Part shown: piece after piece, positions 21,987-48,650 of the stretch | How the letters are laid out: every line of letters begins with the position of its first letter | Position numbering within the stretch: the stretch's first letter is position 1 | From: Candidatus Udaeobacter sp. | GTDB taxonomy: Bacteria; Verrucomicrobiota; Verrucomicrobiia; Chthoniobacterales; UBA10450 | Reading direction: 5' to 3' | Length of the DNA stretch: 64,000 bases | NCBI GenBank assembly: GCA_035652195.1 | Contig: DASREH010000135.1 | Location: 31,151 to 95,150 of the forward strand | Translations under genes and position numbers: made by a program | Notes under the pieces: generated by a model | Told to the model about the DNA's origin: nothing | The model's input: the letters and a program-made list of their open reading frames with translations, nothing else | Databases searched by the model: none

Positions 21987-21988
21987 GC

Positions 21989-22933: not shown

Positions 22934-22936
22934 AAA

Positions 22937-30247: not shown

Positions 30248-30249
30248 CG

Positions 30250-32220: not shown

Positions 32221-33033
32221 TTACCACCAAAGCTGCAAGCCCGCGACAAATGCGATCGTGTCCGCAGTCTCGCCTTCGCTGCGAGCTATCTGGGCCGTTT
32301 CGCCAAAGCTGCGCAACCACGAGATGCCGATGTAAGGAGCGATTTCACGCCGGATTTCGTAGCGCAGGCGCAGGCCGAGATCGAGTTCCGTCACTCCGCT
32401 TCCGGTGCTGAATCTTTTGTCGCCTTGAATTGAAACTTCGCCTTGGAAACGCGGCTGCAACACGATGTGCTGAGTCAGCAAAAGATCGACACTTGCTGTC
32501 AGCTCGGCGGAAACTTCGCCGTGATCGCTAATGTAAAGCGCCGGCTCGAAGTCGAACAAGAACGGCGTCAGTCCTTGAAATCCGATTACGGCATAGGTGC
32601 GGCCATTGTTGCCGAGGCCGCCGTTACCCAAATTTGATTTGCCGCGCACGCCGATTTGGAAATCCCAAAACGGCGCGATGAGCCGGCCGTAGAGTAATTG
32701 GAGGTCGCCTTCGCCGCGATAGCCGTCGGAAAGTCTCTGCCGGCCTTCCGTTTTTAACCAGAGTCGATTCCAATCGCCGCCGAACCAGCCCACGAAGTCC
32801 CACACGAACATGGCCGGCCCGGAGCTGTTGTAACGATATTCGAGCAGATCGAAAATAGAGAAACTATTGAATGGGCTGTCATCGACCGGCGGAGGCAGGG
32901 TGTTAATATATTGCTGAAGCTGGGCGCGCGATGGCGGGGAGCCGGGCGCATCCTGCGCGTCGGCATTAATCGACGACATCATCAGCACTGTGGCGGTGAT
33001 GACGATTCCTGAAAAGAAACGCCGAGCTTTCAT
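32221..33033 (-). CDS. copB: Copper resistance protein B (outer membrane)
   Basis: 270 aa. CopB-family strings are present: DLLEYRY, WFGGDWNRLWLKTEG, GLRLRYEIRREIAPYIGISW. The C-terminus ends in W. Confidence 0.9.
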   Translation of the reverse strand: MKARRFFSGIVITATVLMMSSINADAQDAPGSPPSRAQLQQYINTLPPPVDDSPFNSFSIFDLLEYRYNSSGPAMFVWDFVGWFGGDWNRLWLKTEGRQRLSDGYRGEGDLQLLYGRLIAPFWDFQIGVRGKSNLGNGGLGNNGRTYAVIGFQGLTPFLFDFEPALYISDHGEVSAELTASVDLLLTQHIVLQPRFQGEVSIQGDKRFSTGSGVTELDLGLRLRYEIRREIAPYIGISWLRSFGETAQIARSEGETADTIAFVAGLQLWW

Positions 33034-33039
33034 TAAAGG

Positions 33040-34938
33040 CTACGCTCCATTCGGCGTGACGGAGAACACGCGCAGCATGCCCATCTCCATGTGGTAAAGG
33101 ATGTGGCAGTGGAATGCCCACGCACCGGGCGCATCAGCGGTGACGTCCACGGAAAGTTTCTCGCCCGGCTTGAGACCAATTGTGTGCTTGAGCGGATTAT
33201 GCCCGCCGTGGCCGTTGACGAGTTGCATCCACATGCCATGCAAATGCAGCGGGTGTTCCATCATGGTGTCATTGACGAAGGTGAGCCGGACGCGCTCACC
33301 GAGCACAAGCGGAATTGGTTCGGGCGCTTCGGAAAACTTTTTGCCGTCGAACGACCACATGTAACGGTCCATGTTGCCGGTGGCGTGCAGCTCGATTTCG
33401 CGCTGCGGCGGGCGCGAATCGTAGCCGGGCTTGAGCCCGCGCAGATCGCTGTAAGCCAGCACGCGCCACGGCATTTCCTCCAGGCCGTCGCCCGGCTCAT
33501 TTAGCCGGTTTTTCGGCGACTTCGCCACGACTTGATTCTCGGGGCCGTGCTTGTCCGGCCCATGCATTCCGTCCGGCTGCACCAGGCCCGCTTCGGTTCC
33601 GCCGGGCGCGGGAATTGTCGGAATGTTCGCCGGCGGCGTCTCGCTCGGCGAGCGCGCAGTGCCGTGCGACATGCCCGGCATTCTTTGTGCGTTCATTTCG
33701 TTCATTCCCGCCATGCCGGCGTGTTTCTGCGGGGGTGGAGGACCCATCGCCATTCCACCATGCGATCCCACTGCGCCAGACATTCGTTTCATTTCGCCAG
33801 TGCTGCTGCCGCTGGGCATTCCCGCCATGTCCGCCATGCCCATGTCGGCCATCGTGCGCAACGGCCGTTTGCGCCGTTCTGGAATGGCGGCGCTCATACC
33901 GGCGCGCGGCGCGAGTGTCCCGCGCGCATAGCCGCTGCGATCAATTGTCTCGGCAAAAATCGTGTATGCGCGATCCGCCTGCGGGTGCACGATCACGTCG
34001 AACGTCTCCGCAATCGCGATGCGCATTTCGTCCACCGTCACCGGCTTGACGTATTGACCATCGGCCGCCACCACGGTCATCGGCAGTCCGGGTATGCGCA
34101 CATCGAAAAAGGTCGCGGCGCCCGCATTAATGAAACGCAGCCGCACCCGCTCGTCCGGCTTGAAAATGCCGGTCCAGTTCGTTCCGGGCGCGAGGCCATT
34201 CATCAAGTAGGTGTAATGATGCCCGGTCACGTCCGAGATGTCGGTCGGGTCCATGCGCATGAGGCCCCATTCCTTGCGCGCGGCGATGGCGGCCCCGAGG
34301 CCGTCGTTGCTGACATTACGAAAGAAATCGCCGACGGTGCGTCGCTGAAAATTAGAGTAATTGCTTTGCTTTTTTAGTTTCGATAGCAGCAGCTCAGGAT
34401 CGACAAACGTCCAATCGCTCAGCATCACGACATATTCGCGGTCGTAGCCAAACGGCTCGTCGCCGGGCGGATCAATAATGAGCGGCCCGGCGTGACCTGT
34501 TTGTTCCTGAAGCCCGCTGTGGCTGTGATACCAGTAGGTGCCGTGCTGTTTGAGCCGGAAGCGATAGGTGAAAGTCTCGCCGGGCGCGATGCCGGCGAAC
34601 GATACGCCCGGCACACCATCCATTTTCATCGGCACGATCACGCCGTGCCAGTGAATCGAAGTGGCTTTCCTTAGCCGGTTGCTTACTCGAATCACCACCT
34701 GTTCGCCTTCGCGGAAACGGAGCAGTGGACCTGGATAAGTGCCGTTGATTAGTGTGCCGGTAGCTGCGCGTCCACCCACGTCAAGCGCCCGCTCCGCGAT
34801 TTCCAAGTCAACCGCCGGTCCAAGTCCCCTGAGGCGTTGTCCGCTGCGCGCGTAAGCCGGCGTGAAGCGACCCAGCGCGGCAAATAATCCCGCCCCCGCT
34901 GCGCAGCGGATAAAACGGCGCCGCGTAAGATGAGTCAT
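33040..34938 (-). CDS. copA: Copper resistance multicopper oxidase CopA/PcoA
   Basis: Tat signal RRRFIRCAAGAGLF. Cu-site motifs are HWHG, HSH and HCHILYHMEMGM. There is an internal Met-rich region (MADMGMADMAGMPSG...). Confidence 0.95.
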   Translation of the reverse strand: MTHLTRRRFIRCAAGAGLFAALGRFTPAYARSGQRLRGLGPAVDLEIAERALDVGGRAATGTLINGTYPGPLLRFREGEQVVIRVSNRLRKATSIHWHGVIVPMKMDGVPGVSFAGIAPGETFTYRFRLKQHGTYWYHSHSGLQEQTGHAGPLIIDPPGDEPFGYDREYVVMLSDWTFVDPELLLSKLKKQSNYSNFQRRTVGDFFRNVSNDGLGAAIAARKEWGLMRMDPTDISDVTGHHYTYLMNGLAPGTNWTGIFKPDERVRLRFINAGAATFFDVRIPGLPMTVVAADGQYVKPVTVDEMRIAIAETFDVIVHPQADRAYTIFAETIDRSGYARGTLAPRAGMSAAIPERRKRPLRTMADMGMADMAGMPSGSSTGEMKRMSGAVGSHGGMAMGPPPPQKHAGMAGMNEMNAQRMPGMSHGTARSPSETPPANIPTIPAPGGTEAGLVQPDGMHGPDKHGPENQVVAKSPKNRLNEPGDGLEEMPWRVLAYSDLRGLKPGYDSRPPQREIELHATGNMDRYMWSFDGKKFSEAPEPIPLVLGERVRLTFVNDTMMEHPLHLHGMWMQLVNGHGGHNPLKHTIGLKPGEKLSVDVTADAPGAWAFHCHILYHMEMGMLRVFSVTPNGA

Positions 34939-34957: not shown

Positions 34958-35329
34958 TCAGCTCACTTCGAGCACGCGATTCATTGTGCCGTATTCATTG
35001 CAGACGCAGCCATCTCGTCCATCATACACTTGGTCCGGGCCTGGTTCGCAAGACCATTGTCCGTCAATAATGAATTTCCATTCGTAGCGCCCCGTCGCGA
35101 GAGGAAGGGAAATCGACCAGTTGCCCTCGGCGTCGCGCACCAACGGTGTCGCGTCGGGTTGCCAGCCGTTGAAGGTGCCGGCCAGGAATACACTCTGAAC
35201 GTGCGGCGCATTGCAACTGAATTTAACCGGTTTGAGATTTTCCGGCGTTGGATTTGTTTCTGGCGTGGAGTTCATAGAAGCATCTTTCGGTTTTCTTTTT
35301 CGTTTCACGGATTCTTTTTGAAAAATCAC
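34958..35329 (-). CDS. CBM48/early-set (glycogen-binding-like) beta-sandwich domain protein
   Basis: VKFSCNAPHVQSVFLAGTFNGWQ...GRYEWKFIIDGQW is the AMPK-beta/isoamylase N-domain pattern. A GTG at 35329 overlaps the upstream stop, and an alternative ATG lies at 35275. Confidence 0.6.
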   Translation of the reverse strand: MIFQKESVKRKRKPKDASMNSTPETNPTPENLKPVKFSCNAPHVQSVFLAGTFNGWQPDATPLVRDAEGNWSISLPLATGRYEWKFIIDGQWSCEPGPDQVYDGRDGCVCNEYGTMNRVLEVS

Positions 35330-36141
35330 ATGTGATCGCTCATCGGCGATGAGGATGCGGCTGGCGCCGGCGAGGCGAAGCCGGTCAGAATTTTACGCTG
35401 ATCGGGGGTAAGGAGCTTGGCCGCTTCACCAACAGAGCGAATGAAGGAAAGACGCTCGTTGGCGCGAAGCTTTTCAATCTCGCGCACCTTTGCCTCGATC
35501 TTTCCGGTATCGGGCTGATCAGCCGAGGTCAAGGTCGCAAGCTCCTGCTCGTCCTGCTCGATTTGTCGTTCAGCGGAATTCTTGGAGGCAAGCGCCTGGT
35601 CCTTGATTTTGTTGAGCGCCACTTGCTGATCGGTTGAAAGAGCGATGTGGTCGGTGCGATCGAGAAAGAACCCGGTCGCACCGATGTGATAGAGATGCGA
35701 CGCGCCTGGAAAACCGGGCAGAGCTGATCGAGGCATGTTCATTCCCTGCATCCCTTCCATGCCGCTCATCATCCCCATCATGTCCATTCCCTCCATTGGT
35801 CCCATCATGTTCTCCATTCCCTGCATACCGCCCATCTGGCTCATGCCTCCACCGGCCTGCATGCCCATTCCGCTCATGCCTCCGCCAGCGCGCATTCCGG
35901 GCATACTGCCGGGGGAGCCAGGCGGCTGAGAGTGTGCCGTCGCTTCCAATTTTTTAATCTTGGCTTGAAGCTCGGCAATCTGTTGCGCAAGAGCGGCGTC
36001 GCTCGACGGTTGCGCCGTTCCTGTTGCCGGGGTCGACATTTGGGCGGGCAAAGTCACAGTGAATGCCGCGATTGCGATGCTCGCGAGCATCGTGGCAGGC
36101 ACTGGCCTGATCTGAACTAATTTATACATCGATGTTTTCAT
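35326..36141 (-). CDS. Periplasmic Met/Gly-rich protein with a CpxP/Spy-like (LTxxQ) C-terminal domain
   Basis: A signal peptide is followed by about 70 aa of M/G repeats (GSMPGMRAGGGMSGMGMQAGGGMSQMGGMQGMENMMGPMEGMDMMGMMSGMEGMQGMNM). After that come LSTDQQVALNKI and LLTPDQRKIL. Confidence 0.7.
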   Translation of the reverse strand: MKTSMYKLVQIRPVPATMLASIAIAAFTVTLPAQMSTPATGTAQPSSDAALAQQIAELQAKIKKLEATAHSQPPGSPGSMPGMRAGGGMSGMGMQAGGGMSQMGGMQGMENMMGPMEGMDMMGMMSGMEGMQGMNMPRSALPGFPGASHLYHIGATGFFLDRTDHIALSTDQQVALNKIKDQALASKNSAERQIEQDEQELATLTSADQPDTGKIEAKVREIEKLRANERLSFIRSVGEAAKLLTPDQRKILTGFASPAPAASSSPMSDHM

Positions 36142-36655
36142 ATTTCGTATGGTTTGCTGATTTACGAGCCCGCTCTTCCGAACACGTTGGTTTCAAAAAA
36201 TCAGACAACGAAGCAGCGCGCGCCGCTACGCATTCATTCGGAAAGAATGCGCATTTGTTCCGTTGCTGAAGCCCGGGTTTGCCATGTTGCGACGCGCAAC
36301 ACCCGGGAGAAGCACCGCATGCGCCACCAATGAAGAGTTCCGAAACAGCCGCGCGGCAAGTGCGAGCGGGAATAGGCCGAATCATTCCACCCGCTAGACA
36401 CGCTAGCCCATCGAAACTTTGGCTTCGATCTTATCGTGTTTCCGTAAGGATTTTCTGAGCGCAGAAGTTCAGTTGATGCGCCTCTATTCGGCGCGCCAGC
36501 CGATGCTAACCATCGAGTTCGTACTTAAGCTGGCGCTCATACTCCGTGTCGAAATGGTTTTTCAAGTTCCTAATGACAGTATTCGGATTGGCTGACGGAT
36601 TTCGGATTCCACTCAGCGATCACTATCCCGCTGGCATCCTTCTATTCTTGCAATC

Positions 36656-37075
36656 CTAGCGGTCGGCCCCGAAAAATCTTTGAGCCAGCAACATGCCGAT
36701 CGCCATCGTCGGCACGAAGAGCAGCGCTTCCGCGCGGAGAGCGCCCAGATTGGCGAGCGACGGCCCGGGGCAGAACCCGCCCAAGCCCCAGCCCAGGCCG
36801 AAAATCGCGGCCCCGATTACAAGCTGACGGTCAATCGGCGACGATCCAGCCGAGGGCAGCTTCAGACTTCGACGTCTGTAACGGCGCAAGACCAGCATTC
36901 CCAGTCCATAGACGCCGACCGCACCTGCCATGACGAAAAGCAGCGCTGGGTCCCAAGCGCCGAAGACATCAAGAAATCCGATTACTCGCGCCGGATCGGT
37001 CATCCCCGAGACAGCGAGCCCCGACCCGAAGAGGCCGCCGGCCACGAGAAGAAGAAACAATTTTCCTGCTTTCAA
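36656..37075 (-). CDS. YeeE/YedE-related (DUF6691-type) sulfur-compound transporter half
   Basis: 139 aa with 4 TM helices. Contains GLFGSGLAVSGMTDPARVIGFLD. The TTG start overlaps the upstream stop. Confidence 0.78.
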   Translation of the reverse strand: MKAGKLFLLLVAGGLFGSGLAVSGMTDPARVIGFLDVFGAWDPALLFVMAGAVGVYGLGMLVLRRYRRRSLKLPSAGSSPIDRQLVIGAAIFGLGWGLGGFCPGPSLANLGALRAEALLFVPTMAIGMLLAQRFFGADR

Positions 37076-37494
37076 AGGTTTACTCGGTTATAGATGAAAA
37101 CTGTCACCATCGCCGCAGCGATGAAGATGAGCGTCGCCGCGATCCAGTCCTTCGCGCCCAACCCAAGGCCGCAAACTCCATGGCCGCTCGTGCAGCCTCC
37201 GCCGAGGCGGGTGCCAAATCCGACGAACAAACCGGCAATAGCAATAACACCGAGCGGGCGCATCGGTCGAAAAAAGGCGGCGCTTTGCCACAGCGCAAAA
37301 CTCAGCGCGGCGCCGCCAATCAGGCCCAAGAGAAATACCGCTCGCCATGTCTTGTCGGGCGTCGCCGGAACGAGGAGGCGACCGAACACACCGGAGATAC
37401 CTGGAATCTTTCCGCTCAGCACGGTCGCGACCAGGCTGGCGAGACCGATCAGGATTCCACCGATCAGCGGATTCAAGAGCGTGTAATGGTCCAT
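37072..37494 (-). CDS. YeeE/YedE family protein (transporter half)
   Basis: 140 aa. Contains GKIPGISGVF and the GGGCTSGHGVCG motif. Confidence 0.8.
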   Translation of the reverse strand: MDHYTLLNPLIGGILIGLASLVATVLSGKIPGISGVFGRLLVPATPDKTWRAVFLLGLIGGAALSFALWQSAAFFRPMRPLGVIAIAGLFVGFGTRLGGGCTSGHGVCGLGLGAKDWIAATLIFIAAAMVTVFIYNRVNL

Positions 37495-37608
37495 CAGTCA
37501 GAAGCTTGGCAACGTGTCTGAAGCAAATTAGCGGCGCAGCCAGACATAGCTATGCCATACCTTCGCGAAGCGTTTGCAAGCTGTTCATTTAAAGCAAACT
37601 GATACCGA

Positions 37609-38652
37609 TTATGCGTCGGCTATCTTTAATACGACGCGGCCGGTCACTTTGCCTTCCCGTAAGCGTTGGAAAACTTCGTTGATGGCCTCCAGCGGCTGAA
37701 GTTCAATTTGCGCTTTGACCTTGCCTTCACCAGCGAAGTCGAGAGCCTCTTGTAAATCTCGACGCGTGCCGACAATTGAGCCGCGAATCGTAATGCCATT
37801 GAGCACGACATCGAAAATAGGCGTCGGAAAATCTCCGGGCGGCAGGCCAACCAGCGAACAAGTGCCACCGCGACGAACCATCCTGATTCCTTGAAGGAAA
37901 GCGCTGCGCGAGACCGCAGTCACCAGCACGCCGTGCGCGCCGCCGATCTGTTTCTGAATCTCGGTGACGGGATCGCTCTGAGTCGCATTGATCGTCAGAT
38001 CGGCACCGAGTTTGCGGGCCAGCTCGAGTTTATCGTCGCCCACATCCACCGCGGCCACGTGTAGTCCCATCGCTTTGGCGTACTGCACTGCCACATGACC
38101 GAGGCCGCCGATTCCGGAAATAGCTACCCATTGTCCAGGCCGAGTATCGGTCTGCTTGAGACCTTTGTAGGTGGTGACACCAGCACAAACGATAGGCGCG
38201 ATTTCACTGAAAGATGATCTCGCCGGCAGGTGACCCACATAGTTTGCGTCAGCTAAAGCATATTCCGCGTACGCGCCATCCACGGAATACCCACTGTTTT
38301 CCTGTTTGGGGCAAAGCGTTTCCCAGCCTGTCATGCAATACTCACAATACCCGCAGGCGCTGTGTAACCATGCAATGCCGACACGCTCTCCTTCCTTCAC
38401 CGAGCGGACGCCTTTGCCGATGGCGACCGCGTAACCAACGCCTTCATGGCCCGGAATAAATGGCAACTTGGGCTTAACCGGCCAATCACCGTCAGCGGCA
38501 TGAAGATCCGTATGGCACACTCCGCAGGCCACGATCTTTACCAGAACCTGTCCCTCTCCAGGTTCAGGAATCGGAACTTGTTCAATCAAGAGCGGTTTGC
38601 GGAATTCGCGAACCATCGCCGCCTTCATTTGTTGGCCCGCTTTTGTCTTCAT
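37609..38652 (-). CDS. Zinc-dependent alcohol dehydrogenase (AdhP-like)
   Basis: Contains [14 protein letters not shown] and a GLGGLGH Rossmann motif. The start is either ATG at 38652 (ATGA overlap with the upstream stop) or 38628 (MKAAMV). The track start at 38778 was rejected. Confidence 0.92.
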
Positions 38653-39071
38653 GAGCTGGTTTGCGAGATCGGGTGAGGCACCGGGCATTTGAACGGTTTC
38701 TCGCGACAGATGCTGCAGCGATGCTGCAATTTGCCTTCGCGGACGAAAGTCGTAATCGCGCCCTGACAGCCCGGGCATCGATCCTCATAAGTTGTCGGCG
38801 GAAGTGACAAACCGCCCCAAGCGTATGTGCTCCAACCTGGAAAGCCGCCAGGGAATCCAGGATAATAAACATATGGCGGTATCGGCCGGTAAAACGGCAC
38901 CGCAACCATTTTGCATTGCGGGCAAACCAGTGCTTCGCCCGGTTTGTTGCCTGCGTCTCTCGATGCAGCCGTCGATGCGTTTTCGGTAGCGCAACTTTGT
39001 AGCAAAGCGCCAAACGTTAGTGCAACAATTGCTGCCGCAGTTGCCGATTTTGTCTTAACGTCTGCTTTCAT
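38649..39071 (-). CDS. Cys-rich putative lipoprotein (CxxC-knuckle family, paralog A)
   Basis: Lipobox-like LLQSC. The Cys pattern is CPQC...CPGCQG...HRCSIC...C, with a Pro/Tyr/Gly-rich insert. Confidence 0.6.
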
Positions 39072-39077
39072 GCTTTC

Positions 39078-39503
39078 TCAGATGTGATTTGTTTTGGATT
39101 CACCAGACGTAACGATAATTTTCCTGGGACAGCCTGGGCCGCACGGCACGCCGAATTTGCTGGCACGCTGTGTTCGCGAAGAAGTGTCGGACAATACGGG
39201 GCAACGGAATGGCGTTCGCGCACAAATGGAGCATTTATGTTTCCAAGCGCCCTCGCTAACGAATGATTCCAAGACGCCCTTGCAACCGCTGCACGCGGTC
39301 ACGTGACTTGCGCCGGCTCGGCGGCTGTAAGGAAAATGAGACCGTATCCGCATCGTCGCTGCTTCTACAGCGACGGATCTGCATTGCGGGCAAACCAGTG
39401 CTTCGCTGCTGGTAGTCTCAGCGGTCGATACGCAGCCAGCGGTGAAGGCAATAAAAGCAAGGGCGCCGGTTACGGCCGCTGAGTTCGCTGAAAACGATCT
39501 CAT
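39078..39503 (-). CDS. Cys-rich putative lipoprotein (CxxC-knuckle family, paralog B)
   Basis: Lipobox-like FTAGC. The Cys pattern is CPQC...CSGCKG...HKCSIC...C. Its ATG overlaps the stop of the GltD-like gene (ATGA). Confidence 0.6.
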   Translation of the reverse strand: MRSFSANSAAVTGALAFIAFTAGCVSTAETTSSEALVCPQCRSVAVEAATMRIRSHFPYSRRAGASHVTACSGCKGVLESFVSEGAWKHKCSICARTPFRCPVLSDTSSRTQRASKFGVPCGPGCPRKIIVTSGESKTNHI

Positions 39504-41155
39504 AGCCGCACGCTATCGCGACGTTTAATCTCACGCTCCGCATTCGCACGGAAACATTGCCCATTCTTCGTGGTGGCCAGCGGAGCGAATGACGAGTCTG
39601 AACGGCCGATCGTGGTCCATGCAGGAGTCGCAAGACTCCCTCGATGCCCAGCTAGGGAAGTTCCTGAATGAGAAACATTCGCTACGACGGACTCTTCCTC
39701 ACATTGGCTTGGACTTGAGAGGTAGCGATGGATACCGGCCGCGGCTTTGCGTCCATCACGCACCGCGTGAGCAACCAAACTGGGACCGCGCACCAGGTCG
39801 CCACCGGCAAAGACGCCGGGGACGCTGGTCATTTGATTGGCATCGACGATCACGCTTCCCCAGTTGTTGATATCGATCTTGTCCGAATTGCCCGCGGCAA
39901 AGATCGGCACCGGATCGAAGCCGAACGCCACGAGCACCACATCGGCCGGCACGCTGAATTCAGAATTTGGAATGGCGCGCGGCTTGCGCCGTCCTTTCGC
40001 GTCCGCTTCGCCTAATTCCATCCGCACGCAGCGCACTTGCGAGATGTGCCCAGTGCCATCGTCCTGAAGCGCGATCGGATTGGTGAGAAACAAAAACTGC
40101 GCGCCTTCTTCAACTGCGTTGGCGTATTCCTTGCGACTGCCAGGCATGTTGGCCAGATTGCGGCGGTAAAGACAAACCGCTTCGCGCGCGCCGGAGCGAA
40201 TCGCAGTGCGCAAACAATCCATGGCCGTATCGCCGCCACCGACCACGACCACCCGCTTTTCTGAGACATTGACCGCACCGTGGGAAACATCGCCGAGATT
40301 TTTTTCGATGAGAAACGGCAGCGCATCGAAGACGCCGTCCAAATTGGCGCCGGGAATATCGAGCGACTTCGGTTTTTGCGCGCCGATCGCCAGATAAATT
40401 GCATCGAACTGCTCGCGCACGACCGACAACGAAACGTCCCGCCCGATCGTAACGCCGAGCCGAAATTTGACGCCGCGGTCGCGCAAAAGTTCGAGCCGCC
40501 GCTCAACAATTGGTTTCTCCAGCTTGAAGGCAGGAATGCCGTTGACGAGCAGACCGCCGGCGCGTGTTTGCGAATCGAAGATCGTGACCGCGTAACCGAG
40601 TTTGGCCAGTTCATCCGCGCAAGCCATGCCGCCGGGACCGCTGCCTACGATCGCGACGCGCAATCCATTCGGCACAGCGCGCGACGCTTCGACGGCATCA
40701 TGGGCGAACGCGTATTCGTTAATGAATTTTTCGATCGCGCCAATTGCGACCGGATCGGAGCGGGCATTGAGGATGCAGGCGCCTTCACACAATCGCTCCT
40801 GCGGACAAACGCGGCCGCAAATTTCCGGCACGTTGCTGGTCGAGCGGGAAACCGCCGCTGCTTCCAGAAAGCGTCCATCGGCGGCGAGGGCGAGCCAGTC
40901 CGGAATCAAGTTGCCAAGCGGACATCCGATGCGGCAGAGCGGATCCGGGCATTGAATGCAGCGGCTGGCCTGCTCGCGCACGGTTGCTTCATCGAGCAAT
41001 GAGTAGATCTCGTCGAAATCACATACGCGCTCGCTAGCCTCGCGCTTCGGCGGCTCGACACGCGGGATTTTGTACCAGGCCTGCTTCGCCTGGTATCCCG
41101 GCAGCACACGTGCAGCATCGGCGCCACGTTTTTGCGGAGAGTTTGTCACATTCAT
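39500..41155 (-). CDS. GltD-like (glutamate synthase small subunit family) NAD(P)H-dependent FeS flavoprotein oxidoreductase
   Basis: The start was reset to MNVTNSPQ (ATG at 41155, ATGA overlap). Contains CIQCPDPLCRIGCP, VAIVGSGPGGMACA and VVVVGGGDTAMDC. A ~70-aa low-complexity C-terminal tail is present. Confidence 0.9.
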   Translation of the reverse strand: MNVTNSPQKRGADAARVLPGYQAKQAWYKIPRVEPPKREASERVCDFDEIYSLLDEATVREQASRCIQCPDPLCRIGCPLGNLIPDWLALAADGRFLEAAAVSRSTSNVPEICGRVCPQERLCEGACILNARSDPVAIGAIEKFINEYAFAHDAVEASRAVPNGLRVAIVGSGPGGMACADELAKLGYAVTIFDSQTRAGGLLVNGIPAFKLEKPIVERRLELLRDRGVKFRLGVTIGRDVSLSVVREQFDAIYLAIGAQKPKSLDIPGANLDGVFDALPFLIEKNLGDVSHGAVNVSEKRVVVVGGGDTAMDCLRTAIRSGAREAVCLYRRNLANMPGSRKEYANAVEEGAQFLFLTNPIALQDDGTGHISQVRCVRMELGEADAKGRRKPRAIPNSEFSVPADVVLVAFGFDPVPIFAAGNSDKIDINNWGSVIVDANQMTSVPGVFAGGDLVRGPSLVAHAVRDGRKAAAGIHRYLSSPSQCEEESVVANVSHSGTSLAGHRGSLATPAWTTIGRSDSSFAPLATTKNGQCFRANAEREIKRRDSVRL

Positions 41156-41490
41156 GAGTGCGGCGCGCCCTTGCAATCGGCGCAGAGATGTTTTTGTGCC
41201 GGCTGAAAATACGGCGCCGCCGGCCATTTTGCCGAAGAAACCTGCCATGCACCGGCAGAATAACCCCAGTGCCAGTACGCAGGGCCCCAGTCCCACGCGT
41301 TCCGGCAGGTCGTGCACGCATCGGCCATCGGGACGGCGCCGGCTTTTCCGCATTTTGCGCAGCCGGGCGGTTCTTCTGCTTTCTCCCCGCCTCGGGCTGG
41401 GCCGCCAACTAACAGCGCCAATGAAAGTCCGGTCAGCAGCGTGACCTGCGACATCGCACGTCCGATACTTTTGAGGCCGAATCCTTTCAT
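41152..41490 (-). CDS. Exported Cys- and Trp-rich small protein
   Basis: The start was reset to MKGFGLKSIG... (ATG at 41490), preceded by GGAGAG. It has a signal-like helix followed by CAKC...CTTC...CADC. Confidence 0.5.
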   Translation of the reverse strand: MKGFGLKSIGRAMSQVTLLTGLSLALLVGGPARGGEKAEEPPGCAKCGKAGAVPMADACTTCRNAWDWGPAYWHWGYSAGAWQVSSAKWPAAPYFQPAQKHLCADCKGAPHS

Positions 41491-41581
41491 AGACTCTCTC
41501 CATTTCTTATAACGCCGTCCGGCATTTTTCTTCCCACCACCTTTTGCCAAAAGCTCACCATTAGTTGCTGTCCGTTCACGG

Positions 41582-42409
41582 TCATGGCTTGGATAGACTC
41601 GACTGCTCGCAGCACGGCCCGGTGCCGCTAAGACCGCATTCTCCCAACCACGGCAAATACCGCGGACCTGCGGGCTTGAGACCAAAAGATTTAATGGCCT
41701 TTTCGCGAATGTGCTCAATGGCCATCTCAACCGAATCGGTCACGTAAAGAAGATCGAGATCTTTCGAACTGATGTTGCCCAAGCGCGCCATCTTCTCGAT
41801 GAGGCCGACCATCTCCCGCCAGTAATCCGTCCCCATGACGACAATGGGAAAATTGTCAATCTTTCCGGTTTGAATCAGCGTCAACGCTTCGAACAATTCG
41901 TCCATCGTCCCTGCGCCGCCGGGGAATACGACGAAGGCGTAGGAATATTTCACGAGCAGCGTTTTGCGGACGAAGAAGTAGCGCATCGTCACGCATCGAT
42001 CGAGATAAGCATTGGGCTTCTGCTCAAATGGCAATTCGACGTTGCACCCGACGGAGCGACCCCGCGCCTCCCTGGCGCCGCGATTGGCCGCTTCCATGAT
42101 TCCCGGTCCCCCGCCGGTCATTACGGTAAAACCGAGCCGCGCAATCGCCGCGCCCATTTGCCGGGCGAGTTGATAGTTTGAATTATCCTCCCGCGTTCTT
42201 GCTGATCCGAACACGGTCACGCACGGGCCAACGAAATGGAGCACGCGAAAGCCGCGCACAAAATCCCGCATCACACGCATGAGCGTAAGCAACTCGCCTA
42301 TGCGCGAACGCGGACCTTCCAGCATCTGGCGGTCGGCTTCGCCGCAACCGCAAGCGTGCTTGTCTTTTGAAACGCTTTGCTCAAGCAAATTGGTGTCGCT
42401 TGTGCTCAT
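41582..42409 (-). CDS. LOG-family / TIGR00730 Rossmann-fold protein (lysine-decarboxylase-like nucleotide hydrolase)
   Basis: Contains GGGPGIMEAANRGA and PGGAGTMDELFE. The start was reset to MSTSDTN (ATG at 42409), which overlaps the cusA stop (ATGA). Confidence 0.88.
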   Translation of the reverse strand: MSTSDTNLLEQSVSKDKHACGCGEADRQMLEGPRSRIGELLTLMRVMRDFVRGFRVLHFVGPCVTVFGSARTREDNSNYQLARQMGAAIARLGFTVMTGGGPGIMEAANRGAREARGRSVGCNVELPFEQKPNAYLDRCVTMRYFFVRKTLLVKYSYAFVVFPGGAGTMDELFEALTLIQTGKIDNFPIVVMGTDYWREMVGLIEKMARLGNISSKDLDLLYVTDSVEMAIEHIREKAIKSFGLKPAGPRYLPWLGECGLSGTGPCCEQSSLSKP

Positions 42410-45400
42410 GCAGTCGCCGCACTCTCGGCTAACTCTCGTGGCGTTGGACTCGGCGCGAGCCCCGCTCTCACGCCCCGCGCGCGCCAGATGTAATAAAGCG
42501 CGGGGAAGACGACCAGCTCCATGATCACGGAAGTAACCACGCCGCCAATCATCGGCGTGGCGATGCGTTTCATCACATCCGCGCCCGCGCCGTGACTCCA
42601 CATGATGGGCAACAATCCGGCAATGATAACGGCGCCGGTCATGGCTTTGGGACGAACGCGCTTGACGGCACCGTGATAAATCGCGTCGCGCAGATCGGCC
42701 AGGCTGCGCATCGATCCCTTTCTGCGCCACTCGTCGTAGGCAAGATCGAGATAAAGGAGCATGACCACGCCGGTTTCCGCACTGATGCCGGCGAGCGCGA
42801 TCAGTCCAATCCAGACCGCCACACTCAGGTTGTAATGCAGCCAATAAAGCATCCAGACCGAGCCGACGAGCGCGAACGGCACCGCCAGCAGGACGATCGC
42901 AGTTTTAACGGCCGATTGGGTGTTGAGGTAAATGATCAACACTATGATCAGCAGCGTGAGAGGCACCACCACCATGAGCCGCTGCTGGGCCCGCAGCATG
43001 TATTCGTATTGGCCGCTCCAAAAAATGTTGTAGCCGTTCGGCAATTTGATCGTGCCTTTGCTCACGGCGTCGGCGACAACGCGACGCGCCATCTCGACAT
43101 AAGTGCCGATGTCGATGTTCTTGACATCGACGTAAATCCACGCGTTAGGCACAGCGGCTTCGCTTTTGATTCCCATCGGCGCGCGCACGGTCTTGATCTC
43201 GGCAAGCTGACCGAGCGGAATTTGCGCGCCGGTCGGCGTGGGCACAATGATCTCGCGCAAGGCGTCGAGGTTCTCTCGAAAATCGCGATCGTAGCGCAGG
43301 TTGACTGTGTAGCGTTCGAGTCCTTCGACGGTTGTCGTGAGAGGCATCCCGCCGAGCGCGACTTCGAGCACGTCCTGCACATCGCCGACGACAAGGCCGT
43401 AACGTGCAATCTCATCGCGGTTGATGTGAAACTCGATGTAGTTGCCGCCCATGACGCGCTCAGCAAAAACGCTCGACGTGCCCGGCACCTGGCGCACGAC
43501 CGCTTCGATCTCGGCGGCAACGCGTTCCAACTCCGCCAGGTTCGGGCCGGCGACTTTGATGCCGACGGGCGTTTTGATGCCGGTAGCCAACATGTCGATC
43601 CTCGTTTTGATCGGCATCGTCCAGGCATTGCTTAGCCCGGGAATTTGAATGGCGGCGTTCATCGCATCGACCAGTTCATCCGGAGTGCGGCGGCGATGCG
43701 CGATCACTTTTCCGGCCGCGTTTTTGATGTCCACCTTCGGCCATTCTTTCTCGTCTTTGAGCTGGATTGTCGTCTCGACCATGTCGAACGGCGCGGGATC
43801 GGTGGCGGACTCGGCCCGCCCGATCTTGCCGAAGACGTGATGCACCTCCGGGAACGTTTTGATCATTTTGTCGGTTTGCTGAATCACTTCCCGCGCTTTT
43901 GTCGGCGAGATGCCGGGGAAAGTCGTCGGCATGTAAAGGAGGTCGCCTTCGTAAAGCGGCGGCATGAATTCGCTGCCCAGCCGTTTGTAAGGAAACCAGG
44001 TAATGATGAGAAGCGCCGCCGCCGCGCCAACGACGATCCAGCGCCAGCGAATCACGAAATCGATCACCGGATGGTAAAGCCAGATGAGCGCGCGGTTAAT
44101 CGGATTTTTTTCTTCGGCCAGAATTTTGCCGCGAATGAAATAGCCCATCAGCACAGGCGCGAGCGTGATGGAGAGCAGCGCGGCCGCGGCCATCGAGTAG
44201 GTTTTGGTAAAAGCGAGCGGCTTAAACAATCGGCCTTCCTGCGCCTGCAAGGTGAAGACCGGGACAAATGAGACGGTGATCACGAGCAGCGAGTAAAAGA
44301 GCGTCGGCCCAACTTCGACCGATGCGTCGCGGATGATTTGCCAATGCGGTTTTTTGCCGGTGTCGCGCTCGATGTGTTTGTGCGCGTTCTCGATCATGAT
44401 GATGACCGCGTCCACCATCGCGCCGATAGCGATGGCGATGCCGCCGAGCGACATGATGTTTGAGCTGATGCCCTGCTTGAACATGATCACGAAAGAAATC
44501 AGAACCGCGATCGGCAGGATGAGGATGGCCACGAGCGCGCTGCGCAGGTGCAGCAGGAACGCGATGCAAACGAGCGCGACCACGATGCTTTCCTCGACCA
44601 GCTTTTCCTCGAGCGTCGCCACCGCGCGATCGATCAGCGCCGTGCGATCGTAGGCAATGGTGTAGCTGACATCCGATGGCAATCCTTTCATCGCTTCATC
44701 GAGCCGCTTCTTCACGTCTTTGATCACCTGACGCGCGTTCGCGCCGTAACGCACCACCACGATTCCGCCCGCCGTTTCGCCTTCGCCGTTCAATTCCGCG
44801 ATACCGCGCCGCATGTCGGGACCAAGCTGCACGTTGGCCACTTCCCGGAGCAGGATCGGGACGCCGCCTTCGCCGACGCCGACCGTAACTTTTTTCAAGT
44901 CCTCAATGTCCTGCACATAACCGCGCACGCGCAGAATGAACTCCTTCTCCGCCATTTCGATCGAGCGCCCGCCGACCTCGCCGTTGCTGCGGCGCACAGC
45001 CATTTCGACATCGCGGATCGACAAGTTGTAAGCGCGCAGTTTTGTCGGATCGACAGTAACCTGGTATTGTTTTACGAAGCCACCGATGCTTGCGACTTCG
45101 GAGACACCTTCTACCGACGCAAGCTGGTAACGAAGATACCAATCCTGCATCGAACGAAGCTCGGCCAGGCTGCGCTGCTTTGAGTTGAGCGAATACATGA
45201 ATGCCCAGCCGACGCCGGTCGCATCAGGGCCGAGGGTCGGCGTGACTTTTTCCGGCAGGCGGGAACTGAGTCCGCTCAAATATTCGAGCACGCGGCTCCG
45301 TGCCCAGTAAGGATCGGTTCCGTCCTCGAAGATGACATAGACAAACGAGAACCCGTAGAACGAATAACCGCGCACGACCTTCGCGCGCGGGACAGAGAGC

Positions 45401-45618
45401 ATCTTGGTGGTGATCGGATAAGTCACCTGGTCCTGCACGATTTGCGGCGCCTGGCCCGACCATTCGGTGTAAATAATCACCTGGGTGTCGGAGAGGTCAG
45501 GAATCGCGTCGAGCGGGATGTTGCGTAGCGCATAAACTCCGGCGAGCACAAGCCCGATCGTGGCAAAGAGGACGATGAATTTGTTCTTGAGCGAGAAATC
45601 GATGATGGCTTTGAGCAT
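42406..45618 (-). CDS. cusA: CusA-type heavy-metal efflux RND permease
   Basis: 1070 aa. The TM4 motif is LGGIAIAIGAMVDAVIIMIENAHK. Confidence 0.95.
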   Translation of the reverse strand: MLKAIIDFSLKNKFIVLFATIGLVLAGVYALRNIPLDAIPDLSDTQVIIYTEWSGQAPQIVQDQVTYPITTKMLSVPRAKVVRGYSFYGFSFVYVIFEDGTDPYWARSRVLEYLSGLSSRLPEKVTPTLGPDATGVGWAFMYSLNSKQRSLAELRSMQDWYLRYQLASVEGVSEVASIGGFVKQYQVTVDPTKLRAYNLSIRDVEMAVRRSNGEVGGRSIEMAEKEFILRVRGYVQDIEDLKKVTVGVGEGGVPILLREVANVQLGPDMRRGIAELNGEGETAGGIVVVRYGANARQVIKDVKKRLDEAMKGLPSDVSYTIAYDRTALIDRAVATLEEKLVEESIVVALVCIAFLLHLRSALVAILILPIAVLISFVIMFKQGISSNIMSLGGIAIAIGAMVDAVIIMIENAHKHIERDTGKKPHWQIIRDASVEVGPTLFYSLLVITVSFVPVFTLQAQEGRLFKPLAFTKTYSMAAAALLSITLAPVLMGYFIRGKILAEEKNPINRALIWLYHPVIDFVIRWRWIVVGAAAALLIITWFPYKRLGSEFMPPLYEGDLLYMPTTFPGISPTKAREVIQQTDKMIKTFPEVHHVFGKIGRAESATDPAPFDMVETTIQLKDEKEWPKVDIKNAAGKVIAHRRRTPDELVDAMNAAIQIPGLSNAWTMPIKTRIDMLATGIKTPVGIKVAGPNLAELERVAAEIEAVVRQVPGTSSVFAERVMGGNYIEFHINRDEIARYGLVVGDVQDVLEVALGGMPLTTTVEGLERYTVNLRYDRDFRENLDALREIIVPTPTGAQIPLGQLAEIKTVRAPMGIKSEAAVPNAWIYVDVKNIDIGTYVEMARRVVADAVSKGTIKLPNGYNIFWSGQYEYMLRAQQRLMVVVPLTLLIIVLIIYLNTQSAVKTAIVLLAVPFALVGSVWMLYWLHYNLSVAVWIGLIALAGISAETGVVMLLYLDLAYDEWRRKGSMRSLADLRDAIYHGAVKRVRPKAMTGAVIIAGLLPIMWSHGAGADVMKRIATPMIGGVVTSVIMELVVFPALYYIWRARGVRAGLAPSPTPRELAESAATA

Positions 45619-45622
45619 TGGA

Positions 45623-47116
45623 TCAGTGCTGGTGTTCGCTCTTCGGGGGCTCGGGCGCGGCAGCTGCCGACGATTCGTTAGGCTTCGGGATCAGCGTCAT
45701 CCCGCAGATAGGGCATTTGCCCGGGTGCTCGTATTCAATCGAAGCATGCTCCGGCATCGGGCAGATGTAAGTGGATGATGGCTGGGGCGTAGGCGCGATT
45801 GCTTCAGGTTTTTCTTTCGCTTCGTGTCCTGCGTGCGTTTCTGTTTGCGGCGACATTTTGTGTCCTGTGTGCTCGCTGGGTTTTGCAAGCGCCGTCGGCT
45901 CGATCATTTTCTGAATCGCTTCCCGAAGCTGGCTTTCGGAATCGAGCATGAACTGGCCGCTCGTGACCACTCGCTCGCCTTCATTCAAACCGCTCAACAC
46001 CTGATAGAGATTGTTTTCCGAGCGCGGGCCGAGCGTAACCGTGCGCGGCTCGAACTTGCCGCCTTCGAGCGCCACGAAGACGGTTGTTTTCGCGCCGCTG
46101 CGCAAGATCGCGGTGTCAGGGACAAGCAGTGTCGAAGGCTCCAGCTCCGCTTCCAGTTCCACCGTCGCGAACATTCCCGGCTTAAGGAACAAACCGGGAT
46201 TGTGAAACTCCATTCGCACCTGCGCCGTGCGCGTCTTTTCATCAACAGTGGGATAAACGTAAGTGACGCGGCCGCGAAACTTCCGATCGGGCAAATAGGA
46301 AAGTGTGGCGACTGCTTCCTGGCCCAGCCGCACATAGGCGAGGTCTTGCTCGTAAATCTGCGATTGCAGCCAGACGATCGACAAATCAGCCAGCCGGTAG
46401 AGTTTCATGCCGGCTTCGACCATCTGGCCTTCCACGGCCATTTTCTCCAGCACTACGCCGTCGGCCGGCACTTTGACTTGCAACGTTTTGGTGCCTTTGC
46501 GGGTCTTTTCCAGCTCGGCAATTTGTTCGTCGGAAATGTCGAAATATTTGAGTCGCGTGAGCGCGCTCTGCTTCAAGTTTGCCGGGCCTTTGAGCGCGAG
46601 CAGGTACTCATTTTGCGCGCTGTAAAGATCGGGCGAGTAAATGTCGAAGAGCGGCTCGCCCTTTTTCACTTCCTTGCCGGTGGCATCGACATAGAGCTTC
46701 TCGATCCAGCCTTTGAATTTCGTGGTCACATCGGTCAACGCTGTCTCGTTAGGCTGGATGCGCCCCACGGTGCGCACGATGCGGCGCAGCGGCCCGCGCG
46801 TGACGGTACCGATGCGAACTCCCATGTTTTGGACCGTGACCGGATCGATGGAAATAATTGAGGTGTCGCCTGCCTCATCTTCATACACCGGCACCATGTC
46901 CATTCCCATGCTGTCCTTTTGCGGCGTCAGGCTGATCTGGCCAAGCATCATGGTGGACTTGTAGTATTTGATCTTGCGGCTGCCCTGCGCCTTGCCCGCA
47001 GCGGGAGAACCTGCCGCTGGACTGCGCGTTGGCTTTTTGCTCGCGAAATAAATCCCTGTCCCTCCACCGATGAGAGCGATGAGTGCCAGGACGATGACCA
47101 GTTTCTTGCGTTTCAT
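45623..47116 (-). CDS. cusB: RND periplasmic adaptor (CusB-like) with a C-terminal heavy-metal-binding domain
   Basis: 497 aa with an HlyD-like core. The C-terminus carries YICPMPEHASIEYEHPGKCPICGMTLIPK. Confidence 0.92.
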   Translation of the reverse strand: MKRKKLVIVLALIALIGGGTGIYFASKKPTRSPAAGSPAAGKAQGSRKIKYYKSTMMLGQISLTPQKDSMGMDMVPVYEDEAGDTSIISIDPVTVQNMGVRIGTVTRGPLRRIVRTVGRIQPNETALTDVTTKFKGWIEKLYVDATGKEVKKGEPLFDIYSPDLYSAQNEYLLALKGPANLKQSALTRLKYFDISDEQIAELEKTRKGTKTLQVKVPADGVVLEKMAVEGQMVEAGMKLYRLADLSIVWLQSQIYEQDLAYVRLGQEAVATLSYLPDRKFRGRVTYVYPTVDEKTRTAQVRMEFHNPGLFLKPGMFATVELEAELEPSTLLVPDTAILRSGAKTTVFVALEGGKFEPRTVTLGPRSENNLYQVLSGLNEGERVVTSGQFMLDSESQLREAIQKMIEPTALAKPSEHTGHKMSPQTETHAGHEAKEKPEAIAPTPQPSSTYICPMPEHASIEYEHPGKCPICGMTLIPKPNESSAAAAPEPPKSEHQH

Positions 47117-47118
47117 GC

Positions 47119-48414
47119 CTACTTAGTGGTTTTTTTTAAATCTTTGACCGTGGCGGCGCGCGCGCCGGAGAGTGGCGCGGCGGGATCGACGCCGATGATC
47201 GCGCGCAATTCGGCAATGGCAGTTTGGTGCTCGGCGAGGTTGTTCAGCGCGGCGGATTGCGCATCAAAAAAGTTGCGCCGCGCAGTGATCAGGTCCAGAA
47301 AGCTGCTCTTGTCCGATTCATAGCCGGCACGAGTTGCTTCGACGGCTTGCTTTGACAGCGGGACGATTTTGTTTTGAAACAGGGCGTAGTTGCTCGCGGC
47401 GGTGTCGATCCGCTGGAGCTGGCTCCGCACCAAGCCCAGCACCTCGACGCGAGCGCCTTCGAGATCGCGCTGCGCTTGCTCGACTCCGTTACGTGCTTCC
47501 GATACCCCGGCAGAGTACTTTCGAAAATTGACCCACGGCACGTTGAAGAAAACGCCCGTATCGTATTCCTGAATTACGCTGCTGGAGTCTTTGAACTCAC
47601 GCGCTCTGATTTGAACCTGAGGATCGGGAAACCATTGCCGGTGCGCGAGTTGAAGCCGGGCTTTGCCGGCATCCACCATTTTTCGCGCCTGCAACACTTC
47701 CGGCCGGCTCGCCAGCGAAAGCATCTCGACGGCTTGCGGCGACAACTCCAGCCCTCTGAACACAATTGCCGGCGGATGTGCGAGCGTCGCCGACGCAGGC
47801 CGGTCCATCAGCACGTTAAGTTCAGCCTGGCGGATGGTGATCTCCCGATCGAGGTTCGCCTCCGTTTCGCTCAGCCTTGCCAGGTCAGTCTGCGCGAGCA
47901 GAACGTCGGACTGGGTCTGCAAGCCCGCCTCGTATTTGACGCGGCTGATCTCAGCGAACTGCCGGAGCAACTCCTGATTTTCGTGCGTGATGTCGAGTTG
48001 CGCATACGCGTTGGCGAGGGCGAACCACGCCGTGCGCGCGCGCCGCAGCGCATCCAGTTCTGCCCGCCGCAATTCTTCAAACGCGGCTTCGGCCTCCGCG
48101 CTTGCTATGCGCCCGCGGCTCAAGTTTTTGCCGGATACGGGCACACTTTGAACGATCATGTATTCCACGTCGGAAAACGTTGCAAAACGTGTCGTGCCTG
48201 CGCGCTGAAAATCCGTACCAACCAGCGGGTCGTCCCAGGCGCGTTCCTGCGGCACGCGCTGCCGCCTGGCCTGCCATCTGGCGCGGGCGGCCTTGATTAC
48301 CGGATTATCACGCAGAACAGTGTTGACCACTTCGCTTTCTGAAAGCGTGTCGGCGACCGAGAAAACTGGGGCGCCGAGCAGTCCGGTCAGCGCAACCATG
48401 AGAATTCGCTTCAT
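47119..48414 (-). CDS. cusC: TolC-family outer membrane factor
   Basis: 431 aa with a signal peptide and OEP repeats. Its start overlaps the YHS gene stop (ATGA). Confidence 0.9.
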   Translation of the reverse strand: MKRILMVALTGLLGAPVFSVADTLSESEVVNTVLRDNPVIKAARARWQARRQRVPQERAWDDPLVGTDFQRAGTTRFATFSDVEYMIVQSVPVSGKNLSRGRIASAEAEAAFEELRRAELDALRRARTAWFALANAYAQLDITHENQELLRQFAEISRVKYEAGLQTQSDVLLAQTDLARLSETEANLDREITIRQAELNVLMDRPASATLAHPPAIVFRGLELSPQAVEMLSLASRPEVLQARKMVDAGKARLQLAHRQWFPDPQVQIRAREFKDSSSVIQEYDTGVFFNVPWVNFRKYSAGVSEARNGVEQAQRDLEGARVEVLGLVRSQLQRIDTAASNYALFQNKIVPLSKQAVEATRAGYESDKSSFLDLITARRNFFDAQSAALNNLAEHQTAIAELRAIIGVDPAAPLSGARAATVKDLKKTTK

Positions 48415-48650
48415 TGGTCGAAAGGCGAAAACGACCCCGGCGGCCGTTTGTCATCCGTGATTTTGCGTACCGCGCGGCGACGCAGGTACTTGGCCGGATC
48501 TTTCTCGAATGTTTCAAAACAGAGCGGGCAACAGAGCGCGATCATCTGGCCCTCGATGTTGAGATGGCTGAAGCCTTCGTTGTGTCCGACTGATTTGCCA
48601 CAAACGGCGCACTGCTCGTCCCACTTGAGCTCCGAATTTTTAGCTTCCAT
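48411..48650 (-). CDS. YHS/TRASH-type metal-binding zinc-finger domain protein
   Basis: 79 aa. The spacing in CAVCGKSV...(21)...CCPLCFETFEKDPAKY matches TRASH/YHS domains. Confidence 0.65.
   Translation of the reverse strand: MEAKNSELKWDEQCAVCGKSVGHNEGFSHLNIEGQMIALCCPLCFETFEKDPAKYLRRRAVRKITDDKRPPGSFSPFDQ

Follow-up and report, generated by a model that had tools for sequence, protein, structure and literature searches.

Exported cysteine-knuckle proteins in a metal-resistance island of Candidatus Udaeobacter and their possible role in periplasmic metal handling

Do genes that are tightly chained in one genome also work together? The question is raised by five consecutive minus-strand genes, g1 to g5 (Table 1), in a 64,000-nucleotide stretch of DNA (the window) from a metagenome-assembled genome (MAG) of Candidatus Udaeobacter (Verrucomicrobiota, order Chthoniobacterales). 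In this chain, a GltD-like oxidoreductase (g2) and an alcohol dehydrogenase (ADH; g5) accompany three small proteins (g1, g3, and g4) that carry N-terminal export signals and paired cysteine motifs. A first-pass annotation had offered two readings, in which the small proteins are either rubredoxin-like electron carriers for the GltD-like enzyme or periplasmic Cys-rich metal-binding proteins. The best explanation, to which we assign a probability slightly above one half (approx. 0.55), is that the chain is a mosaic within a metal-resistance island and that its exported Cys7His proteins handle periplasmic metal. From the gene structure, export signals, family conservation, and genomic associations described below, we infer the metal binding, fold, and role of g3, g4, and their A-type relatives.

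A family of exported cysteine-knuckle proteins

Proteins g3 and g4 are paralogues (33% identity, BLASTP E 3e-18). The mature part of g4, a typical family member, contains seven invariant cysteines and a histidine; g3, which falls within the family alignments A1, A2, and A3, is a divergent member with an additional C-terminal CGPGC motif. A single-sequence search with g4 identifies 19 relatives, and a profile search extends the family to at least 177 clusters, none of which carries a Pfam domain and nearly all of which are named 'hypothetical'. Relatives are located in Chthoniobacter and Spartobacteria MAGs. The first-pass annotation had reckoned with the possibility that the small open reading frames (ORFs) are peculiar to this genome; for g3 and g4, the 177 clusters show otherwise.

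Throughout the family, a lipobox is followed by a CPxC knuckle, a variable loop, and the segment CxxCxG-x12-HxCxxC-x6-C. In an alignment of 121 members, the columns C-P-x-C, C-x2-C-x-G, H-x-C-x2-C, and one further C are invariant, and the spacing within the CxxCxG-x12-HxCxxC-x6-C segment is fixed in 121/121 sequences. The loop after the first knuckle comprises 22 to 53 residues and is enriched in aromatic residues, Gly, and Pro. A lipobox-like motif (pattern tested: [LVI][ASTVI][GAS]C) is found upstream of CPxC in 104/121 sequences, the others being N-terminally truncated gene calls; moreover, 15/15 locus copies gain a signal peptide and a lipobox once the ORF is extended upstream. The lipobox reads FTAGC in g3 and LLQSC in g4, where LQSC is slightly atypical; its Cys does not vary in alignment A2. 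Exactly seven cysteines are present in the mature part of 101 of the 104 lipobox-bearing sequences. A twin-arginine motif is predicted in none of the family members examined, and the Sec/lipoprotein signals thus place the Cys domains outside the cytoplasm. The odd number of cysteines, together with the invariant histidine, argues for metal ligation over an all-disulfide fold.

At E<=0.01, none of g1, g3, and g4 is assigned to a Pfam or NCBIfam family. In particular, rubredoxin (PF00301) is matched neither at this threshold nor among weak matches at E<=10, and the CusF_Ec, CopC, CopK, YHS/TRASH, HMA, Metal_resist, NlpE, and metallothionein models match none of g1, g3, g4, and the A-type protein (see below), even at E<=1-10; TRASH, HMBD, and Metal_resist are matched by neighboring genes instead. 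By motif, the nearest known structures would be zinc ribbons (such as PF13453 and PF12760) and rubredoxin knuckles, with which the family shares paired CxxC/CPxCxG knuckles on predicted beta-hairpins. In 20/22 members, the CPGC…HxCSIC segment is weakly matched by Zn_ribbon_TFIIB (best E 0.002; g4 residues 98-124, 14.6 bits against a cutoff of 22), and Zn_ribbon_IS1595 matches occur in 11/22 (best E 0.0008); every one of these scores is below the gathering cutoff. The zinc ribbons and rubredoxins known so far reside in the cytoplasm, whereas members of this family carry Sec/lipoprotein export signals and possess a third knuckle, extra Cys/His residues, and a long variable loop. The automatic JGI name 'phage FluMu protein Com', attached to two members, was rejected as a mere CxxC…CxxC pattern match. 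No description of the g3/g4 family was found in the literature searched; no curated family matches the small proteins, and the first-pass remark that the arrangement is not recognizable as a described one is fair.

A further relative is encoded 10 kb upstream in the same island. This A-type protein was recognized through locus L032, one of the related loci compared here, where two small exported Cys-rich genes lie directly upstream of a g4-like gene. Its motif is CxKCKTVQV…KHxCPGCGG…HTCSKCG…FCC. It aligns with g4 with every Cys in register (BLASTP E 5e-5), and the A-type and g3/g4 families align with an hhalign probability of 97.3% (E 2.7e-11). Tandem A-type copies adjoin g4-like genes in many related loci. 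To judge from these alignments, g3, g4, and the A-type protein form one undescribed superfamily of small proteins with predicted export signals, of which the island encodes at least three members.

Protein g1 stands further apart. It has a Sec-type N-terminal signal helix and a Trp-rich core between two conserved CxxC motifs (CxxC[RK]D-W-WG-AYWRWGYS…KHxCxxC); a third, N-terminal CAKC is not conserved. There is one close homologue (P0021, 65% identity), and an exhaustive HMMER search adds four distant small ones (P0123-P0126); the other three of its seven matches (P0127-P0129) were discarded as spurious, being repetitive cadherin-like or low-complexity proteins. A pattern scan of JGI metagenomes found no g1 relatives. 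Signal or lipobox helices combined with CxxC/CPxC motifs are indeed seen in g1, g3, and g4, as the first-pass annotation had stated, but its grouping of 'three' like proteins holds for the paralogues g3 and g4 and not for g1, which has no BLASTP similarity to g4. Profile comparison gives short alignments that are no more than suggestive: g1 aligns with the A-type family (hhalign E 3e-4, 38% probability) over 44 columns that pair both CxxC motifs and 'F-P-x2-KH-C-x2-C-G', and with the g3/g4 family at 89% probability over 23 columns only. Protein g1 represents a tiny separate family of exported Trp-rich CxxC…CxxC proteins, nearly an orphan, and may be a truncated superfamily relative that matches the first two knuckles.

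That the small ORFs are chance frames or annotation artefacts might be suspected from the lack of a curated family match and the very few g1 homologues. However, the 177 g3/g4 clusters retain invariant Cys/His residues and conserved lipoboxes, and g1 is a real gene under purifying selection: compared with its copy in locus L016, the ratio of nonsynonymous to synonymous substitution rates (dN/dS) is ~0.12, and third codon positions of the g1 frame account for 36/55 differences within the mature part. An artefact therefore has next to no probability.

Neighbors of the family in related loci

The genes that accompany the family were identified by tblastn of the window proteins against all fetched loci. 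Relatives of g3/g4 occur in 53 loci; when near-identical loci are collapsed, 34 clusters remain, 22 of which contain at least 5 kb of sequence. A Cus, Cop, Metal_resist, or TRASH gene is present in 16 of these 22 non-redundant loci, an A-type paralogue in 11/22, and a PocR-AraC regulator in 9/22. An ADH gene (in L014, upstream of the g4-like gene) and a g1-like gene (in L055) are each found in 1/22. A GltD-like gene is found in 0/22, and in none of the 53 loci. Tables of called genes agree with these counts. In L038 and L049/L050, the g4-like gene closely follows CusA. The reading of the small proteins as periplasmic and metal-binding is thus partly borne out: the family does recur beside CusCBA, CopA/CopB, Metal_resist, and TRASH genes, while the metal binding is deduced from this context and from motif logic.

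The same counts bear on the other reading, according to which the small proteins are membrane-anchored, rubredoxin-like carriers of electrons to or from the GltD-like flavoprotein. In its favor, the CxxC/CPxCxG knuckles are similar to motifs of rubredoxins and zinc ribbons, the window shows translational coupling of the genes, and a g1-GltD pair with the same 4-nucleotide (nt) overlap recurs in L016. Nevertheless, g3/g4 homologues are consistently found without the oxidoreductase, and the proposed partnership is unsupported because no GltD-like gene occurs in the family loci (0/53). The distant g1 homologues P0125 and P0126, in L054 and L055, likewise have no GltD nearby, and the overlap between g2 and g3 hinges on a non-conserved tail (see below). 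Moreover, with Sec/lipoprotein signals and no twin-arginine motif, the small proteins are predicted in a different compartment from the cytoplasmic g2, and they match no rubredoxin family in Pfam/NCBIfam. Failing on both compartment and co-occurrence, the electron-carrier reading is very improbable.

The g1-GltD pair recurs only in L016, a close relative, where it is located after the 3' end of CusA and before a divergent CusF-SCO1 fusion. Beyond the fusion lie a cupredoxin gene, nosZ, nosD, nosF, nosY (with an interrupting IS481-type transposase), and NnrS, the whole region covering L016 516-10812. It may be asked whether g1 and its GltD-like neighbor are a true functional module of two genes, separate from g3/g4; for example, the cytoplasmic NAD(P)H oxidoreductase and the exported Cys/Trp-rich peptide could be made in fixed stoichiometry under common regulation and serve copper-related redox chemistry. 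Gene order and ATGA overlap are conserved in the window and in L016, both pairs lie downstream of CusA, the L016 pair is found beside the CusF-SCO1 fusion and nosZDFY, and both genes are under purifying selection (dN/dS 0.12 for g1 and 0.17 for g2). However, two instances in close relatives could reflect plain synteny, and the partnership is absent beyond the nearest relative, as P0125 and P0126 show. The products are also predicted in different compartments, and g2, which is as GltS-beta-like as a true GltD (E 7e-131), may pair with a gltB elsewhere. Such a module is quite improbable.

A proposed role in periplasmic metal handling

In the reading that we favor, periplasmic metal handling, the small proteins would cross the membrane unfolded and fold once in the periplasm, with zinc-ribbon-like knuckles that coordinate one or two ions of a thiophilic metal (Cu(I) and/or Zn(II)/Cd(II)). 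The first site would be built from C99, C102, C119, and C122, and the second from C50, C53, and C129 plus H117 or H133. For the neighboring Cus/Cop machinery, the proteins would act as buffers, carriers, or reporters of periplasmic metal, a role analogous to that of CusF, for which the Cus operons of the window contain no gene. The family would accordingly comprise accessory periplasmic metal-handling proteins of resistance islands that have previously gone unannotated. A more specific proposal can be advanced tentatively: these proteins may define a new class of periplasmic metalloproteins, with a Sec- or lipoprotein-exported 'triple-knuckle' zinc-ribbon-like domain whose Cys7His metal-thiolate sites would assemble outside the cytoplasm. 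In Chthoniobacterales, one of the most abundant bacterial groups of soil, where the Cus/Cop systems lack CusF, the domain would be their dedicated sensor, buffer, or metallochaperone, and g1 would be a minimal two-knuckle version co-translated with a cytoplasmic GltD-like reductase.

By function, the nearest known proteins would be the CusF-type chaperones and NlpE/CutF. Like CusF, CopC, CopK, PcoE, CopM, and CopG, the members of the family are small exported proteins encoded in or beside CusCBA and CopAB determinants, and the shared role that we propose from the sequence is the binding of periplasmic Cu(I) or other thiophilic metals. In contrast, they have no sequence or profile similarity to any of that group. 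CusF binds metal through Met/His/Trp ligands on an OB fold, whereas the g3/g4 family would rely on knuckles of seven Cys plus His and has a predicted lipid anchor.

Several observations weigh against this role. Six of the 22 non-redundant loci have no metal gene within reach, and the loci repeatedly share genes for GH57, glycogen phosphorylase, GalT, a thiamine pyrophosphate (TPP) enzyme, TauE, an alternative complex III (ACIII)-like complex, and LOG. All of them come from closely related soil Verrucomicrobia, so that the co-occurrence counts are not phylogenetically independent, and co-occurrence may in part be inherited synteny. In the oxidizing periplasm, many of the cysteines could be disulfide-bonded. 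Structure prediction lends no support either: the confidence score (pLDDT, predicted local distance difference test) of AlphaFold2 for g4 stays within 49-52 (20 sequences, 49.3; 121 sequences, 51.9), and neither model is usable, although strands are predicted beside the knuckles at this low confidence. With the better g4 model, Foldseek retrieves nothing significant from the PDB: the matches (best E 3.8) are zinc-ribbon fragments, ribosomal bL36 among them. Alignments A1, A3, and A6 likewise give no significant match in sequence and profile searches of the PDB.

In L006, L007, L010, L011, and L019, the g4-like gene occurs together with TauE, the TPP enzyme, GH57/GalT, the ACIII-like complex (Fer4_11, NrfD, and cytochrome c), and a DHO_dh-like gene, and no metal gene is present. 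This subset suggests a wider mosaic island, associated with PocR-AraC, in which metal is not the sole theme. The genomic context is therefore suggestive, not decisive, for a metal role.

The main rival to periplasmic metal handling is an NlpE-like role in redox or stress sensing, in which the proteins would be disulfide-rich or redox-sensing envelope lipoproteins whose CxxC motifs, through their state, would convey envelope or copper stress to a signaling pathway; alternatively, they might be adaptor subunits of efflux or outer-membrane complexes. NlpE (CutF), an outer-membrane lipoprotein of E. coli, possesses a CxxC motif and has links to copper tolerance and to the signaling of envelope stress. 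The g3/g4 proteins are likewise lipoproteins with conserved CxxC motifs and often neighbor a CpxP/Spy/ZraP-like Met-rich protein; a PocR-AraC regulator in 9/22 loci, an extracytoplasmic function (ECF) sigma factor in L018, and a VKOR (DsbB-like) gene in the window would also suit a sensor. However, seven cysteines and an invariant histidine fit metal sites better than disulfides. The proteins have no similarity to NlpE or to any sensor family, lacking a Pfam NlpE match and differing from NlpE in size and Cys pattern, and no cognate two-component or Cpx-type system is evident beside the genes. We regard this alternative as rather unlikely.

The chain and the surrounding island

The chain has the structure that the first-pass annotation had given it: ATGA overlaps join g1/g2 (41152-41155), g2/g3 (39500-39503), and g4/g5 (38649-38652), and 6 nt (39072-39077) separate g3 from g4. 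At least six other NTGA overlaps are found in the window, including an ATGA at the CusA/LOG junction (42406-42409) and others at 5602, 6972, 13220, 35326, and 37072. Overlap of this kind is thus the usual operon style across the window; the coupling of g1 to g5 is real and not unusual. A Shine-Dalgarno motif (GGAGAG) precedes g1, the sole clear case in the chain, and its absence from g2, g3, and g5 fits translational coupling. A consensus scan of 36400-42600 for promoters and terminators gave nothing above shuffled sequence, and no internal operon boundary was detected.

Two of the three overlaps call for a qualification. The overlap between g2 and g3 exists because g2 has a non-conserved C-terminal tail of 62 amino acids (aa), which spans 39500-39690 (-); the L016 orthologue (489 aa, 79% identical) lacks it, and the tail has the appearance of a read-through that followed the loss of a stop codon and created the ATGA overlap with g3. 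At the g4/g5 junction, the AdhP model starts aligning at residue 9 of g5, and therefore the true g5 start is likely ATG 38628 rather than the overlapping one. The N-terminus from 38628, MKAAMV, resembles the usual AdhP start, and this choice would turn the overlap into a 20-nt gap.

Protein g2 is a predicted cytoplasmic NAD(P)H/FAD/2x[4Fe-4S] oxidoreductase of the GltD type. It scores above the curated cutoff for TIGR01318 (507.2 bits against 482.95), a GltD family that covers proteobacterial GltD and its paralogues, contains Fer4_20 (E 5e-34) and Pyr_redox_2 (E 7e-31) domains, and has no signal peptide. Among solved structures, the Azospirillum GltS beta subunit (6s6s_G, E 7e-131) is the closest to g2. 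With this protein, NfnB/SudA, and the C-terminal domains of AegA/YgfT, it shares the Fer4_20, FAD, and NAD(P)H domains; it differs in the 62-aa tail, in the gene for an exported Cys-rich mini-protein that overlaps it by 4 nt upstream, and in the lack of an adjoining gltB. Indeed, no GltB-like protein was found among the large ORFs of the 64-kb window scanned with Pfam, so that the first-pass observation of a GltD-like gene without a GltB partner holds over this distance; a distant gltB elsewhere in the genome may pair with g2. An alternative upstream start of g2, in a frame open through g1 to 41503, was rejected on two grounds: alignments with GltD homologues begin at residue 29-34, and it is the g1 frame that the pattern of substitutions obeys.

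Protein g5 is, by its family matches, an AdhP-type Zn-dependent alcohol dehydrogenase. It matches NF006940 over the full length of the model (371 bits against a cutoff of 344; residues 9-345 on model positions 1-336), contains ADH_N and ADH_zinc_N domains, and differs from AdhP in nothing notable; its position beside a g4-like gene is shared with L014 alone, where the ADH lies upstream. The oxidoreductase and ADH assignments of the first-pass annotation are thus confirmed, and both proteins appear to be ordinary cytoplasmic NAD(P)H enzymes that have landed in the island and have no conserved partnership with the small proteins. As a unit, the five genes are a lineage-specific, one-off mosaic, an incidental juxtaposition and not a conserved system.

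Table 1. Positions of the chain and of other features of the window
Feature	Position	Strand	Description	Basis
g1	41152-41490	-	112 aa	ORF list and minus-strand reading
g2	39500-41155	-	551 aa	ORF list and minus-strand reading
g3	39078-39503	-	141 aa	ORF list and minus-strand reading
g4	38649-39071	-	140 aa	ORF list and minus-strand reading
g5	37609-38652	-	347 aa	ORF list and minus-strand reading
A-type Cys-knuckle protein	49017-49415	-	132 aa; Sec signal, no lipobox	ORF reading
VKOR (DsbB-like disulfide oxidoreductase)	13220-14566	+	fused to SPW repeats; ATGA-coupled to NAD-dependent epimerase	
P1B-type ATPase	15446-17797		with HMA	family scans
CopB	32221-33033	-		Pfam/NCBIfam
CopA	33040-34938	-	multicopper oxidase	Pfam/NCBIfam
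CBM48 protein	34958-35329	-	123 aa; AMPK-beta-like glycogen-binding module	Pfam/NCBIfam
ZraP/Metal_resist protein	35326-36141	-	Met-rich	Pfam/NCBIfam
Split YeeE/YedE-like pair	37072-37494, 36656-37075	-	sulphur transport (Sulf_transp and DUF6691)	Pfam/NCBIfam
LOG-family protein	41582-42409	-	Lysine_decarbox/SLOG; ATGA overlap with CusA end	Pfam
CusA	42406-45618	-		Pfam
CusB	45623-47116	-		Pfam
OEP	47119-48414	-		Pfam
TRASH-domain protein	48411-48650	-		Pfam
PocR-AraC regulator	51510-52406	+		Pfam

The window is a large, dense copper and heavy-metal resistance island. It contains three OEP-CusB-CusA sets (4286-10652, 18840-24229, and 42406-48414), and a GCS2 ligase is also encoded. The closely linked genes TRASH-OEP-CusB-CusA-LOG lie upstream of the chain, which is placed between CusA-LOG and the split YeeE/YedE pair. 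The members of this pair overlap by TTGA and directly follow the ADH gene. The Cys-rich protein of TRASH/YHS type, 79 aa long, scores 30.1 bits with PF24273 (cutoff 27); its gene shares 4 nt with the start of OEP, and homologues are present in 9/22 non-redundant g4-like loci. LOG, a cytokinin-riboside-phosphoribohydrolase-like gene within a Cus operon, is also found near g4-like or g1-like genes in L008 (9786-10754) and L055 (964-1833). The VKOR fusion may have a bearing on how far the exported Cys-rich proteins are oxidized.

Further features of the island recur elsewhere. The CBM48 protein, an odd carbohydrate-binding module inside a copper cluster, is linked by a GTGA overlap to the Met-rich ZraP/Metal_resist protein, and the pair is kept in L012 and L014. 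The product of 48640-49011 (-), a small protein that matches ATP-synt_DE_N (epsilon beta-sandwich) at a borderline score, recurs after PocR-AraC and beside Cys-knuckle genes in at least six non-redundant loci. A trio at 28668-32208 (-), consisting of an FNR-like flavoprotein (2Fe-2S, Met-rich N-terminal region), a 247-aa protein, and a multihaem cytochrome c, is kept beside Cop genes in L014 (18061-20273) and L032 (6461-9500), and may be a metal-reductase module.

The locus teaches caution: genes that are tightly coupled by ATGA in one genome need not form a conserved functional unit, and the apparent link between GltD and the Cys-rich proteins dissolves when related loci are compared. Candidatus Udaeobacter and its relatives, which are uncultured, rank with the most abundant bacteria of soils; to our knowledge, the metal-homeostasis toolkit of this group is essentially undescribed. 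Expression and metal-binding tests have a concrete target in the superfamily. If the proposed role is correct, it would represent a rare case of zinc-ribbon-like knuckles operating outside the cytoplasm, and the Cus/Cop islands of an abundant soil lineage would contain a new periplasmic metal-handling module.

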